From: an uncultured Acidobacteriaceae bacterium
Lineage (GTDB): Bacteria > Acidobacteriota > Terriglobia > Acidiferrales > UBA7541
NCBI GenBank assembly: GCA_964600355.1
Contig: CAZRKW010000001.1
Span: 1,856 to 65,855, forward strand
Direction: 5' to 3'
DNA: 64,000 nt
Part shown: positions 8,240 to 15,144 of the stretch, one piece after another
Numbering within the stretch: the first letter of the stretch is position 1
How the letters are laid out: each line of letters begins with the position of its first letter
Notes under the pieces: model-generated
What the model was told of the DNA's origin: nothing
What the model saw: the letters and a program-made list of their open reading frames with translations, nothing else
The model's database searches: none
Position numbers and translations under genes: made by a program

Positions 8240-10165
8240 TTGTGCGGAATTGCAGGCTTCACGCGTAAAAACTGGGCGCCCGGCCCCGGCCGCATCCAAA
8301 GCGCCGTCGCCTCCATCGTCCATCGCGGCCCCGACCAGCAGGGTGTGTTCGAGGGAGACCTCGTCTCGCTCGGCGCCACTCGCCTGAAAATCATCGACCT
8401 CGATACCGGCGATCAGCCGATTTTCTCCCCGGATCGCGATTCCGTCATCGTCTTCAACGGCGAGATTTACAACCATCTCGAAGTGCGCGCGGAACTGGAA
8501 GCGCGCGGCCACCGCTTCCACTCGCGTACGGACACCGAGACCGTACTGCATAGCTTTCTAGAATGGGACACCGCCTGCTTTTCCCGGCTTCGCGGGATGT
8601 TCGCAATCGCCATCTGGACCGCGTCGAAAAAGCGCCTGGTGCTTGCGCGCGACCGCATGGGCATCAAGCCGCTTTACATTGCGCGGCGCGGCGAAGATCT
8701 CCTGTTCGGCTCGGAACTCAAGACCATCTTCGTTCACCCGGAGTTCGACCGCCGTCTGGACCCTGCGTCTTTAGATTGTTATCTCGCGCTGAATTACGTG
8801 CCCTGCCCTTTCACGATGGTCGAAGGAATCGAAAAGCTTCCTCCGGGACATTTTCTCGAATGGCAGGACGGCAGAATTCGCACAGAATCCTATTGGACGC
8901 TGCCGGAACCGCGCGCAGGCAACCGGACCCTCGAATCCGCCCAGGAAGAGCTCGACTCGCTCCTGCAGAAGTCCGTGCGCGAGCATTTGCTCTCCGACGT
9001 TCCCCTCGGCGTCTGGCTTAGCGGCGGAGTGGATTCATCCACGGTGCTGCATTACGCCGCGAACGCCTCACCCTCGAAATTGAAGACGCTCTCGATCTCG
9101 TTTCGCGGCCGGACTTTTGACGAGAGCAGCTATATTCGCGAAGTCGCTTCGCAGTACGACACCGACCACGAACAGTTCGACCTCAATCCGGACGTAAATC
9201 TGCAGGATGCTGTCGAGGAATTCTCGCAGTACGCCGATGAACCCAACGCCGACGCCGGCGCTCTGCCCGTCTGGTTCCTCTCAAAGATGAGCAAGACGAA
9301 GGTCACAGTAACCTTGAGCGGCGAGGGAGCGGACGAACTTTTCGGCGGCTATCTAACCTATCGCGCCAACGTGCTGGCAAAGACCGCCCGGCGCCTACCT
9401 TCCCCGGCGCTGCGCCTGGCGCTCGCCTCCACCCGGCTCCTGCCTGTCTCGGACGAAAAGATCAGCTTCGAATATAAGGTGCGGCGCTTTCTCGAAGGCT
9501 CCTCGATGGCTCCCGAGCGCGCCCATGTGTATTGGAACGGCACTTTTTCGGACACTGGCAAGCGCGCCCTCGTGAACGCGCCACTCCCGGCCTCGCTCAA
9601 CAATATCCTCGCGGAATTGAGGCAGGCATCTTCGGCCGGCGACGATGTGGCGCCCTATCTCTGGTTCGACCAGAAATATTTCCTCCCCGACGACATCCTG
9701 AGCAAGGTCGACCGCATGAGCATGGCCCACGCCGTCGAAGTGCGCCCGCCGTTCCTCGATCATCGCATCGTGGAGTTTGCCGCCACCTTGCCGTCATCGT
9801 TCAAAATACGGGGCGCGCGCCAGAAATTCATTCTCAAAAATTTGATGGCATCGAAACTGCCGCGCTCGGTGATCCGGCGCAGCAAAGTGGGGTTCGATAT
9901 TCCCGCGCACGAATGGCTGCGAGGGCCGCTGCGCGCCCTTTTGCTGGACACGCTCGGTAGCGTAGGATCGGAGCACTCGCAATTTTTCAGGCAGAGCGGG
10001 ATCGAAGCCGCCGTGAACCGGCATCTTAACCGGCGCGAAAATCTCGGTTATCACCTTTGGGGGTTATTGGTCCTATTCCTGTGGATGAAACGATGGCGGA
10101 TTCAAACAGCGCCCCGGGCTGCTCAGTTGGGGCCGCTGGCGGAAAGCGTTCTGACGTCTACCTAG
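8240..10165 (+). CDS. asnB: Asparagine synthase (glutamine-hydrolysing) family amidotransferase
   Basis: Begins M-CGIAGF, with the class-II amidotransferase nucleophile Cys at position 2, which fixes the TTG at 8240 as the start. The SGGVDSS pyrophosphatase loop is present. AAGGGG lies 9 nt upstream of the start. Confidence 0.9.
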   Translation: MCGIAGFTRKNWAPGPGRIQSAVASIVHRGPDQQGVFEGDLVSLGATRLKIIDLDTGDQPIFSPDRDSVIVFNGEIYNHLEVRAELEARGHRFHSRTDTETVLHSFLEWDTACFSRLRGMFAIAIWTASKKRLVLARDRMGIKPLYIARRGEDLLFGSELKTIFVHPEFDRRLDPASLDCYLALNYVPCPFTMVEGIEKLPPGHFLEWQDGRIRTESYWTLPEPRAGNRTLESAQEELDSLLQKSVREHLLSDVPLGVWLSGGVDSSTVLHYAANASPSKLKTLSISFRGRTFDESSYIREVASQYDTDHEQFDLNPDVNLQDAVEEFSQYADEPNADAGALPVWFLSKMSKTKVTVTLSGEGADELFGGYLTYRANVLAKTARRLPSPALRLALASTRLLPVSDEKISFEYKVRRFLEGSSMAPERAHVYWNGTFSDTGKRALVNAPLPASLNNILAELRQASSAGDDVAPYLWFDQKYFLPDDILSKVDRMSMAHAVEVRPPFLDHRIVEFAATLPSSFKIRGARQKFILKNLMASKLPRSVIRRSKVGFDIPAHEWLRGPLRALLLDTLGSVGSEHSQFFRQSGIEAAVNRHLNRRENLGYHLWGLLVLFLWMKRWRIQTAPRAAQLGPLAESVLTST

Positions 10166-11925
10166 CCGTTCTTCTCGTTGCCAGCGCGATCTATTTAGGG
10201 TGCATCGTTTCTCCACCGTCGCTGATGGACGATGTGGATTCCGTGCAGGCGCAGATCGCGCGGAACATGCTCACCTCCGGCGACTGGGTAACCGCGCGCC
10301 TCGACGGCGTCGATTATTTTGAGAAAGCCCCCTTCGTCTACTGGGCGATGGCCGGTTCCTACAGGATTTTCGGCGTCCATGATTGGTCGGCGCGCATCCC
10401 TATTGCCCTTTCCTCGATCGCGCTCGCGTGGCTCACGGCGGCCTTCGCTGCCTGGGCTTTCGGAAAAAGGGCGGGGCTCTACGCAGGACTCTGCATCGCC
10501 ACTTGTGTCGGGCTTTTCCTGTTCACCCGGATATTGATCCCCGATGTGATGCTCACCTTCAGCATCGCCCTCGCGATGTGGGCGTTTCTTCGGGCGCTCG
10601 ACGAAGACGAGCCTCACCCGCGTTTCTGGGCCGCTATTCTCGCCGCCAGCCTCGGCCTGGGCCTGCTGCTGAAAAGCCTGGTCTCGGTGGTGTTTCCGGT
10701 GGGCGCCGGTCTCGTGTACCTGGCCCTCACGCACCAGCTCTTTTCCCTCCGCACGTGGAAGCGCCTGCGCCCCTTCAGCGGCTCGTTGATTGCGCTCCTG
10801 ATCGCGGCGCCCTGGCACATCCTGGCTACCCTTCGCAATCCTCCCTATTTCTCGTTCACGCTTCACAGCGGACCCAACCAGTACCACGGCTTTCTCTGGT
10901 TTTTCTTCATCAACGAGCAGTTGCTGCGATTCCTGAATCTGCGCTACCCGCGCGATTACAACACCGTTCCGCGCTTCCTTTTCTGGACGCTGCATCTCGT
11001 CTGGCTGTTTCCCTGGAGCGTTTACTTCCCCGCCGTCGCGCGTCTCTCTTTCAAGCCAGTGGACCGCGCCGGGCGCACACGCCTTCTGGCCCTTTGCTGG
11101 GCGGGATTCGTGCTCGTCTTTTTCACCTTTTCGACCACCCAGGAATACTATTCGATGCCCTTATATCCCGCCCTCGCGCTCCTGCTGGGCTCGGCCATCG
11201 CGATGGGTGGCAGCTGGGTTCGCTGGGGTACGCGCGCCTTGTCTGGCATTGCGGCTCTCGCTGCGATTGCCTGCTTTGCGCTGGTCTACCTGGTTCGCAA
11301 CGAGCTTACGCCCGGGGACATTTCTTCGGCTTTAAGCTCTCATCCCGATGTTTACACTCTTGCGCTCGGGCATATGCTCGACCTCACGCTGGCTTCGTTT
11401 GCCTATCTGCGGGTTCCGTTGCTTGTCGCGGGAATTGCGTTTCTGATTGGCTGCCTGGGGACGATGTTCGCCGAAGGCCGGCGCGCAGCCTTGGCGATCG
11501 CCCTTATGATGGTCCTGTTTTTTCACGCGGCGCGCCTCGCGATGGTCACTTTCGACCCCTTTCTTTCCTCACGCCCCTTGGCGGACGCCATCCTGAAATC
11601 GCCGCCCGGCAATCTGATTATGGGCGACCAGTACTACACCTTCTCCTCCACCATCTTTTACACCAACCGGAACGCCCTGCTCCTGAACGGGCGCTACTTC
11701 AACCTCGAATATGGGTCCAATGCGCCCGGCGCCCCTTCCGTCTTTATCGACGACTCGCAATTGAAGAACTTGTGGCTTGAGCCCACCCGGTACTACCTCG
11801 TCGCGGACCACGAGCAGCTCCCTCACTTCGACGCCCTGCTCGGACCATCGAATCTCACCACGGTAGCCTCCAGTGGCGGAAAAGCCGTGCTCACCAACCA
11901 TCCCTTGGCGACCAGCGGTGGTTGA
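10093..11925 (+). CDS. GT-C fold polyprenyl-phosphate-sugar dependent glycosyltransferase (ArnT / PMT_2, GT39/GT83-like)
   Basis: ~610 aa with more than 10 TM helices. The N-terminal signature D..DSVQAQIARNMLTSGDWV....Y.EKAPFVYW is typical of ArnT-like enzymes. The ATG at 10093 (or the TTG at 10057) must be used to include the first TM, so the gene overlaps the asnB tail by at least 73 nt. Confidence 0.75.
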   Translation: MADSNSAPGCSVGAAGGKRSDVYLAVLLVASAIYLGCIVSPPSLMDDVDSVQAQIARNMLTSGDWVTARLDGVDYFEKAPFVYWAMAGSYRIFGVHDWSARIPIALSSIALAWLTAAFAAWAFGKRAGLYAGLCIATCVGLFLFTRILIPDVMLTFSIALAMWAFLRALDEDEPHPRFWAAILAASLGLGLLLKSLVSVVFPVGAGLVYLALTHQLFSLRTWKRLRPFSGSLIALLIAAPWHILATLRNPPYFSFTLHSGPNQYHGFLWFFFINEQLLRFLNLRYPRDYNTVPRFLFWTLHLVWLFPWSVYFPAVARLSFKPVDRAGRTRLLALCWAGFVLVFFTFSTTQEYYSMPLYPALALLLGSAIAMGGSWVRWGTRALSGIAALAAIACFALVYLVRNELTPGDISSALSSHPDVYTLALGHMLDLTLASFAYLRVPLLVAGIAFLIGCLGTMFAEGRRAALAIALMMVLFFHAARLAMVTFDPFLSSRPLADAILKSPPGNLIMGDQYYTFSSTIFYTNRNALLLNGRYFNLEYGSNAPGAPSVFIDDSQLKNLWLEPTRYYLVADHEQLPHFDALLGPSNLTTVASSGGKAVLTNHPLATSGG

Positions 11926-12126
11926 AAACAATGTGCCACCGATAGAAGAGGGCTACAATCCGTGGGTAATTTCAAAAGAAGCCACGCCGATTGCCGATAC
12001 GATCACTGTAGTAATAAAAGCACATAAAACTCTTTGGAACTTTTCCCGGTTTTTGGGTTAAATCATTACTTACACTGATGTACCCGTTTGCTAACTCGGG
12101 CCATCTAAATCTCTTAGGGAGGCGAC

Positions 12127-14819: not shown

Positions 14820-14835
14820 CAAAAGCCGTCTTTTG
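14820..14835 (-). terminator. Weak A/U-rich hairpin downstream of the small EamA-like ORF
   Basis: On the minus strand: CAAAAG-ACGG-CTTTTG followed by TTTCGTGTT, 37 nt after the stop at 14872. The stem is only 6 bp and AT-rich. Confidence 0.3.
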
Positions 14836-14871
14836 CTATCAATTGCGCTTCGTGGTTCGTGGCGCGGTGTT

Positions 14872-15144
14872 TCAGACGATCAGGGCCCCGCAACTGATGC
14901 TGCTCACCCCAAACCACTGCAACGGCGTCACCGCCTCGTGCAGCAGAAAAAAGCTCAGCAGCGTGACCACGCCGCAGGAAACGGCCGAGGCCGGCTGCAC
15001 GAAGCTGTAGTCCGCCCACGAAAGCACCACCATGTAAGCCACGAAAAACGTCAGCAGCGCCGCAGGAGCCCAGCTGTTGAGCGCGCCCACGCTCTTCATG
15101 CCCTTCCCCACCAGCACGTTCCCGAGCGGCCCAAACAGCACCAC
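14872..15144 (-). CDS. Small (about 90-100 aa) EamA/SMR-like half-size membrane protein
   Basis: Three hydrophobic helices, ending ...FFLLHEAVTPLQWFGVSSISCGALIV like the last helices of an EamA (DMT superfamily) repeat. GTG start; the start position is uncertain. No N-terminal EamA half is found upstream in any frame. Confidence 0.4.
   Translation of the reverse strand: MVLFGPLGNVLVGKGMKSVGALNSWAPAALLTFFVAYMVVLSWADYSFVQPASAVSCGVVTLLSFFLLHEAVTPLQWFGVSSISCGALIV

Follow-up and report, generated by a model that had tools for sequence, protein, structure and literature searches.

A convergent sqdB–GT21 gene pair in an uncultured Acidobacteriaceae bacterium predicts a variant route of sulfolipid biosynthesis in Terriglobia

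We analysed a stretch of 64,000 nucleotides from an uncultured Acidobacteriaceae bacterium (hereafter the window; GenBank assembly GCA_964600355.1, contig CAZRKW010000001.1, here C1:1856-65855), in which a gene for a UDP-sulfoquinovose synthase, sqdB (12127..13383, plus strand), converges on a gene for a GT21 membrane glycosyltransferase, which we call GT21-S (13466..14638, minus strand). In our estimation, the two enzymes probably constitute, in place of the SqdB/SqdX pair, a two-step route to a sulfoquinovosyl membrane lipid. In the first step, SqdB would make UDP-α-D-sulfoquinovose from UDP-glucose and sulfite, and in the second, GT21-S, a paralogue of the HpnI family with an altered donor-side motif, would act as a candidate sulfoquinovosyl transferase. 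The assembly comprises 4.44 Mb in 449 contigs and is 84% complete; the gene map is based on the listing of open reading frames (ORFs) and on family scans of the window.

A search of the literature on sulfoquinovose in Acidobacteria, or in connection with hopanoids or GT21, returned no account of this pathway, of sulfoquinovose use by a GT21 enzyme or of an acidobacterial sulfoquinovose lipid. On genomic grounds, from which its mechanism is also deduced, we regard the module as a variant form of sulfolipid biosynthesis, conserved and so far undescribed.

The predicted SqdB protein, an extended short-chain dehydrogenase/reductase (SDR), aligns with Arabidopsis SQD1 (1QRR) over 388 aa (residues 2–389) at ~70% identity (633 bits). 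Its residues at the SQD1 positions Thr145, Tyr182 and Lys186 (Y182-H-L-S-K186), described as the catalytic triad of that enzyme (PMC4388408), are identical, and in the tree the clade to which it belongs, designated type A of Terriglobia, is sister to cyanobacterial and plant SQD1. The score against the NCBIfam equivalog NF041015 lies below the cut-off (485.5 versus 575 bits); since only 1 of 14 control genomes exceeds this cut-off, the shortfall was given little weight, and the model seems to be calibrated on a different subclade. We regard the predicted protein as a genuine UDP-sulfoquinovose synthase, and its near-identity to SQD1 makes the predicted synthesis of UDP-α-D-sulfoquinovose from UDP-glucose and sulfite very likely. 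A second SqdB, type B, occurs in other Terriglobia at 58–67% identity and is common in one family (L100–L105, from genomes G004, G031, G065, G169, G117 and G088).

As a probe for SqdX we used the acidobacterial GT4 glycosyltransferase found beside type-A SqdB in two genomes (G004, G145) and abutting sqdB in a third (G151). There is no SqdX model in NCBIfam and no SQD2 structure in PDB, and database names of its homologues are only generic, so that naming from databases failed and the question was settled by comparison with cyanobacterial sqdB–sqdX loci. Along its full length, the GT4 protein shares 52–62% identity with the product of the gene that immediately follows sqdB in 25 cyanobacterial loci, which is the position described for sqdX in cyanobacteria (PMC13436972), and because of this match we assign the GT4 protein as a true SqdX. 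Four SqdX loci of Terriglobia (L097, L098, L119 and L120) are accompanied by a conserved radical SAM protein of ~375 aa, and three of them, all but L120, also by a flippase-like protein resembling the LPG-synthase transmembrane (LPG-synthase-TM) family; both proteins lie outside the textbook sqdBX pair.

No SqdX orthologue was found in the assembly of this organism, where the best probe match is 37% identical over 160 aa, or in six genomes of the same genus (96–98% complete), and in 79 related loci no SqdX lies within 8 kb of SqdB. The GT8 domain (PF01501) of SqdD-type enzymes, which belong to the alphaproteobacterial SQDG pathway, had no match in the organism's own assembly or in five same-genus genomes (97–98% complete); a control search with PF01501 gave matches in 5 of 14 reference genomes. 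The earlier note on this DNA had reported no canonical synthase of SQDG (sulfoquinovosyldiacylglycerol) in the window. That statement holds and now extends to the whole 84%-complete assembly and to the same-genus genomes tested, in which neither sqdX nor sqdD was found.

The strongest evidence for the proposed role of GT21-S comes from the distribution of the three genes among 201 Terriglobia genomes. Related genomes are not independent of each other, and the counts are descriptive only. At thresholds of at least 75% identity for type-A SqdB and at least 58% for GT21-S (the next paralogues reach at most 49%), the former is present in 22 genomes and the latter in 21; both occur together in 19 genomes from five families and 11 genera. 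The 22 genomes with type-A SqdB divide into 18 with GT21-S only, three with SqdX only (G004, G145 and G121) and one with both (G141), and none lacks both. This complementary distribution makes GT21-S a likely sulfoquinovosyl transferase. In the tree, SqdB sequences linked to SqdX nest among those linked to GT21-S, and therefore the same synthase appears to serve either transferase.

The genomic neighbourhood gives a similar picture. We collected 80 loci with SqdB at 76–85% identity, 79 of them from other organisms and all but one named Acidobacteriota. ORF clustering of these 80 sources recovered the GT-C gene in 57, GT21 in 56, an AsnB-type gene in 44, a small EamA gene in 39 (as a rule two in tandem, of ~125–140 aa) and a MacB-like permease in 24, with rarer members resembling FAD-oxidoreductases, the HpnA-type SDR, ArnC-like GT2 enzymes and the flippase-like LPG-synthase-TM protein. 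Orientation and gene order vary widely among the loci while proximity is retained, which argues for selection on linkage; the clustering of SqdB, GT21, GT-C and AsnB, which lie together in most of the 79 related loci, exceeds chance. The adjacency of sqdB, GT21 and GT-C seen in the window is thus conserved in acidobacterial relatives, in several gene orders. A near-identical public metagenome-assembled genome (MAG) of an uncultured acidobacterium (L011) has a SqdB that is 100% identical and neighbouring genes that align piecewise at 81–99%; the piecewise alignment looks like indel errors of a long-read assembly rather than biology.

GT21-S carries the Pfam GT21 domain (PF13506, 6.5e-34), and the family that names it best is HpnI (TIGR03472), with 283 bits against an equivalog cut-off of 310. 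The same genome also has two HpnI copies over the cut-off (333 and 324 bits), one of them in an hpnJ–EamA–EamA–hpnI locus on contig C66, in which HpnJ also exceeds its cut-off (722 versus 578 bits). Among 109 GT21 proteins of Terriglobia placed in a tree, GT21-S forms one clade (SH-aLRT 100, stem length 0.54) of 64 rows, 58 of which lie within 12 kb of SqdB. The clade nests within the acidobacterial HpnI radiation, and we infer that GT21-S is a paralogue that arose from HpnI. Its dN/dS values of 0.03–0.2 correspond to purifying selection, and the clade was found in this class only, with no member in a sample of 250 genomes of the whole phylum. The earlier note had offered, as its first option, that the GT21 enzyme uses UDP-sulfoquinovose to make a sulfoquinovosyl lipid; the SqdB-linked clade, the co-inheritance in five families and the complementarity to SqdX all support it.

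Clade-specific changes in GT21-S include the replacement of HQxRW by K267-R268-x-R270-W271 (KRxRW), the substitutions E179Q and R237L, and a new arginine, R360. The catalytic set D137xD139, D230/D231 and R270/W271 is invariant, and the protein has the GT21 motif set D,D,D,(Q/R)xxRW of hydroxyl-acceptor lipid glycosyltransferases. The motif change indicates a donor-side shift away from the HpnI state. Comparison with the structure of human ceramide glucosyltransferase (7e-26) aligns KRVRW with RMIRW and places R268 at R272. K267 and R268 were also considered as sulfonate-binding residues, and this was rejected as evidence, since R268 aligns with R272 of an enzyme that uses UDP-glucose.

Enzymes of the GT2 and GT21 families are inverting, so the product should, by extrapolation from family knowledge, be a β-sulfoquinoside, unlike α-linked SQDG. 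Candidate acceptors are a glycerol-based lipid, by analogy with another GT21 enzyme, Pgt, and, where hopanoids are produced, as in this organism, bacteriohopanetetrol; the catalytic Asp pair that GT21-S retains would fit a hydroxyl acceptor. Descent from HpnI suggests bacteriohopanetetrol, and with SHC, HpnH, HpnJ and an HpnK-like gene encoded in its own genome, a hopanoid acceptor is possible in this organism. The full module of YdjC, ArnC-like GT2, GT21-S, SqdB, GT-C and AsnB is present in two genomes (G169 and G175, 98% and 96% complete), and neither SHC nor HpnH was found in them. A hopanoid is therefore not the general acceptor, and the candidate of a universal hopanoid acceptor is weakened.

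HpnI and HpnJ equivalogs were also observed in near-complete Terriglobia genomes without SHC and HpnH (L141 of G065, L144 of G013, L138 of G115 and L131 of G169). The HpnI proteins there score 358–367 bits (cut-off 310), and the HpnJ proteins are 71–73% identical to that of our organism. In G065, G013 and G115 both genes lie in hpnJ–EamA–EamA–hpnI loci, and in G169 the HpnI copy stands alone. These occurrences contradict the statement that HpnI and HpnJ domains occur only together with SHC and HpnH (bioRxiv 10.1101/2025.07.29.667474) and suggest that HpnI and HpnJ of SHC-less Terriglobia have non-hopanoid substrates.

Several observations weigh against a sulfoquinovosyl-lipid pathway built on SqdB and GT21-S. 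The support for it is all genomic, and kinship among the genomes means that the co-occurrence counts overstate their statistical weight. Two genomes (G177 and G032) have GT21-S and no detectable SqdB, and therefore GT21-S may accept another donor; in a few others (G014, G110 and G194) sqdB and GT21-S lie far apart. About 20 genomes with type-B SqdB have neither SqdX nor GT21-S, and therefore other, third consumers of sulfoquinovose would exist in the class. The motif change in GT21-S recreates the RxxRW of ceramide glucosyltransferase, which uses UDP-glucose, and so is not evidence of sulfonate binding. Finally, GT-C paralogues recur beside GT21 paralogues in many Terriglobia, where triads of GT21, GT-C and EamA exist in paralogous forms, and GT21 products could be functionally linked to GT-C enzymes.

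The last point leads to the first alternative, an Arn-like lipid-carrier route, which we consider unlikely. GT21-S would load sulfoquinovose onto undecaprenyl phosphate, the EamA pair would flip the product, the GT-C enzyme would transfer the sugar to lipid A, the lipopolysaccharide core or another periplasmic acceptor, and AsnB would modify the acceptor. SqdB, GT21, GT-C and often the EamA pair do cluster in shuffled orders, the paralogous triads fit such a scheme, and GT-C enzymes require lipid-phosphate-linked donors, as in the Arn pathway (PMC4402001). The distribution of GT-C speaks against it: orthologues with at least 52% identity occur in ~70 of the 201 genomes, 54 of these genomes lack type-A SqdB, and their sequences are interspersed in the tree, so that an SqdB-specific GT-C subclade was not found and the candidate of an SqdB-specific GT-C subfamily is not supported. 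Conversely, SqdB and GT21-S persist without a GT-C orthologue in three genomes (G199, G129 and G074). GT21-S has also retained the catalytic Asp pair that hydroxyl-acceptor enzymes have, and we know of no GT21 enzyme that charges polyprenyl phosphate.

The genes next to sqdB bear on the same alternative. The AsnB-type glutamine amidotransferase gene (8240..10165, plus strand; PF00733, 8.7e-89; GATase_7; TIGR01536, 456 bits, over the cut-off) is followed by the gene for an ArnT-like GT-C enzyme of the PMT_2 type (plus strand; PF13231, 2.7e-19; closest solved structure ArnT 5EZM, 1e-28), whose start, at 10057 (TTG) or 10093 (ATG), falls inside asnB, so that the two genes overlap; it ends at 11925, and sqdB begins 201 bp 3' of it. 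AsnB is the constant partner of the GT-C gene, and the overlapping pair stands alone in SqdB-less genomes (G006, G189, G139 and G152; loci L092, L093, L094 and L096). Relatives often have, beside the pair, a YdjC/HpnK-like deacetylase and a GT2 enzyme that resembles ArnC (207 bits); these two imply an aminosugar donor and already fill the donor-making role that the lipid-carrier route assigns to GT21-S. Our organism has its ArnC-like gene elsewhere (C127:7455-8498), beside a YdjC gene, and none in the window cluster. Most likely, AsnB and GT-C, with the ArnC-like GT2, YdjC and EamA pair of relatives, form a separate Arn/Flm-like aminosugar kit acting on a periplasmic envelope acceptor, and the sulfolipid genes and this kit share an envelope-remodelling island. 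A second GT-C paralogue of the same genome (C63:12130-15251, 68% identical) has no AsnB partner and adjoins a membrane-anchored methyltransferase-like protein (judged by eye).

The flippase component is also affected in the window. The EamA-type sequence (14848..15162, minus strand; ORF 14872-15144, 90 aa) differs from every intact orthologue by an in-frame deletion of 20 aa, which costs it one transmembrane helix. Its start codon and first ~11 residues are missing, homology runs on past the stop (IV*NTAPRTTK versus VVGHTPPRTTE), and no partner gene accompanies it. For these reasons we interpret it as a decayed ArnE/F-like remnant and not a functional half-size protein; the other genes of the cluster are intact. 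An intact EamA pair is present elsewhere in the genome, between hpnJ and hpnI (C66:2295-3065). The earlier note had counted the ~90-aa EamA/SMR-like protein as a functional part and had proposed, as its second option, a polyprenyl-phosphate route made of this small flippase and GT-C. With the protein decayed, GT-C found mostly in SqdB-less genomes and its partners pointing to an aminosugar, that option is poorly supported.

A further, improbable alternative is an indirect association, in which GT21-S still uses UDP-GlcNAc or UDP-Glc, as HpnI or ceramide glucosyltransferase do, and an unrecognised transferase consumes UDP-sulfoquinovose, for example for an exopolysaccharide, an O-antigen or protein glycans, the two activities merely sharing the envelope-remodelling island. 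It would account for GT21-S without SqdB in G177 and G032 and for the resemblance of the GT21-S motif to that of ceramide glucosyltransferase, and other consumers are indicated by type-B SqdB, which in two genomes without SqdX and GT21-S (G117 and G088) sits among genes resembling a polysaccharide cluster. On the other side, all 22 genomes with type-A SqdB have GT21-S or SqdX, GT21-S is a single long-stem clade found only in this class, with none in the 250-genome sample of the phylum, and the sqdB/GT21-S pair persists when other cluster genes are absent or rearranged.

It is also conceivable, with a distinctly low probability in our view, that all parts of the island cooperate, across two compartments, to make a single compound glycolipid. 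GT21-S would form the β-sulfoquinovosyl lipid at the cytoplasmic face; the EamA pair or the LPG-synthase-TM-like flippase would flip it; the AsnB-associated GT-C would add an aminosugar from undecaprenyl-phosphate-linked hexosamine (Und-P-HexN), supplied by the ArnC-like GT2 and YdjC, to give a zwitterionic sulfonate/amine head group; and the MacB-type permease would extract the lipid towards the outer membrane. Were this so, the HpnI and HpnJ proteins of Terriglobia would act on non-hopanoid lipids.

That the 16% of the genome missing from the assembly encodes a canonical SqdX or SqdD, and that the organism makes ordinary SQDG with it, is very unlikely: the assembly is fragmented, and SqdX and GT21-S do occur together in one genome of its family (G141), but SqdX is absent from all six and GT8 from all five of the nearly complete same-genus genomes, and from none of the 79 related loci was SqdX recovered within 8 kb of SqdB.

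The remaining features of the island are as follows. The convergent spacer between sqdB and GT21-S (13384..13465) is 82 bp long and contains weak terminator-like hairpins on both strands, at 13388-13401 (plus) and 13447-13432 (minus), with weak consensus matches only. All genes and spacings given in the earlier note (the 201-bp distance, the 82-bp convergent gap and the overlap of asnB and the GT-C gene) are present. Upstream of asnB lies a gene for a MacB/FtsX-type ABC permease (6939..8156, plus strand) with MacB_PCD and FtsX domains. A MacB-type permease and a TolC-like protein also precede hpnJ–EamA–EamA–hpnI loci (L124, L126–L128 and C66:1-4245 of the organism itself), and this parallel hints at dedicated export of GT21 products. 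A locus of the same genus (L091, G177) holds a MacB–AsnB–GT-C–ArnC-like–GT21-S cluster in which the position of sqdB is taken by the ArnC-like GT2 and a protein of 227 aa outside the known families; sqdB was not found elsewhere in G177 either.

Two further elements were observed in the window. An ORF of 161 aa (6337-6822) between a lactate permease gene and the MacB-like gene encodes a protein with a lysine-rich head and an acidic tail, with no match in NCBIfam. An 11-bp unit, CCACAGGGATT, is present in three head-to-tail copies at 15320-15352, ~80-110 bp upstream of the gene for a REC-only response regulator (15430-15819), which is followed by a PAS histidine kinase gene.

Terriglobia rank among the most common bacteria in acidic soils and in peat. 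The module predicts an undescribed sulfonated membrane glycolipid in these very abundant soil bacteria, and the predicted β-linked sulfoquinovoside is a lipid not yet sought by lipidomics. Cultured Edaphobacter strains contain "unidentified glycolipids" and high-mass lipids (PMC11354219), and a MAG of Edaphobacter carries the cluster (L059). If such an alternative pathway operates in Terriglobia, it would be a non-phototrophic, below-ground source of sulfoquinovose conjugates for the sulfur cycle. With GT21-S in the role of SqdX, a lipid glycosyltransferase would have been displaced by a non-orthologous one, and HpnI-family enzymes leaving hopanoid chemistry would bear on the use of hpn genes as hopanoid markers.

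Among known systems, HpnI, the bacteriohopanetetrol N-acetylglucosaminyltransferase of the hpnIJK pathway for hopanoid side chains, is the closest characterised family to GT21-S by sequence. Unlike HpnI, GT21-S falls short of the equivalog cut-off, sits in a long-stem clade of its own with the KRxRW motif, is tied to sqdB and not to hpnJ or hpnK, and occurs in genomes without SHC and HpnH. If the acceptor is a glycerolipid, the best functional analogy is Pgt of Agrobacterium and Mesorhizobium. Pgt is a processive GT21 enzyme that makes β-glycolipids on diacylglycerol or ceramide, which serve as phosphate-free membrane lipids (PMC3972451). It takes UDP-Gal or UDP-Glc as donor and has no link to sqdB, whereas GT21-S is linked to sqdB.

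The likeness to the lipid A aminosugar pathways, Arn (ArnC/ArnE/ArnF/ArnT) and Flm of Francisella (PMC4402001), lies in the ArnT-like GT-C of the cluster, to which relatives add an ArnC-like GT2, an ArnE/F-like EamA pair and a YdjC-type deacetylase. Unlike Arn, the window has no adjacent ArnC-like gene or intact flippase pair, and the AsnB partner has no counterpart in Arn. GT-C is not co-inherited with the nucleotide-sugar enzyme, here SqdB, in the manner of Arn, and the kit is not tied specifically to sulfoquinovose.

UDP-sulfoquinovose can feed glycoconjugates other than SQDG, as with Agl3 and the N-glycans of Sulfolobus (PMC4388408). Agl3 is a distant relative of SQD1 that serves dolichol-linked glycans, and an oligosaccharyltransferase-type logic has no support here. 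With the SqdB/SqdX (SQD1/SQD2) route of cyanobacteria and plants the Terriglobia share the first enzyme, and a few of them still pair type-A SqdB with a true SqdX. Unlike in that route, the GT4 enzyme SqdX was not found in the assembly analysed here, and the partner of SqdB would be an inverting GT21 enzyme, for which a β linkage is predicted.

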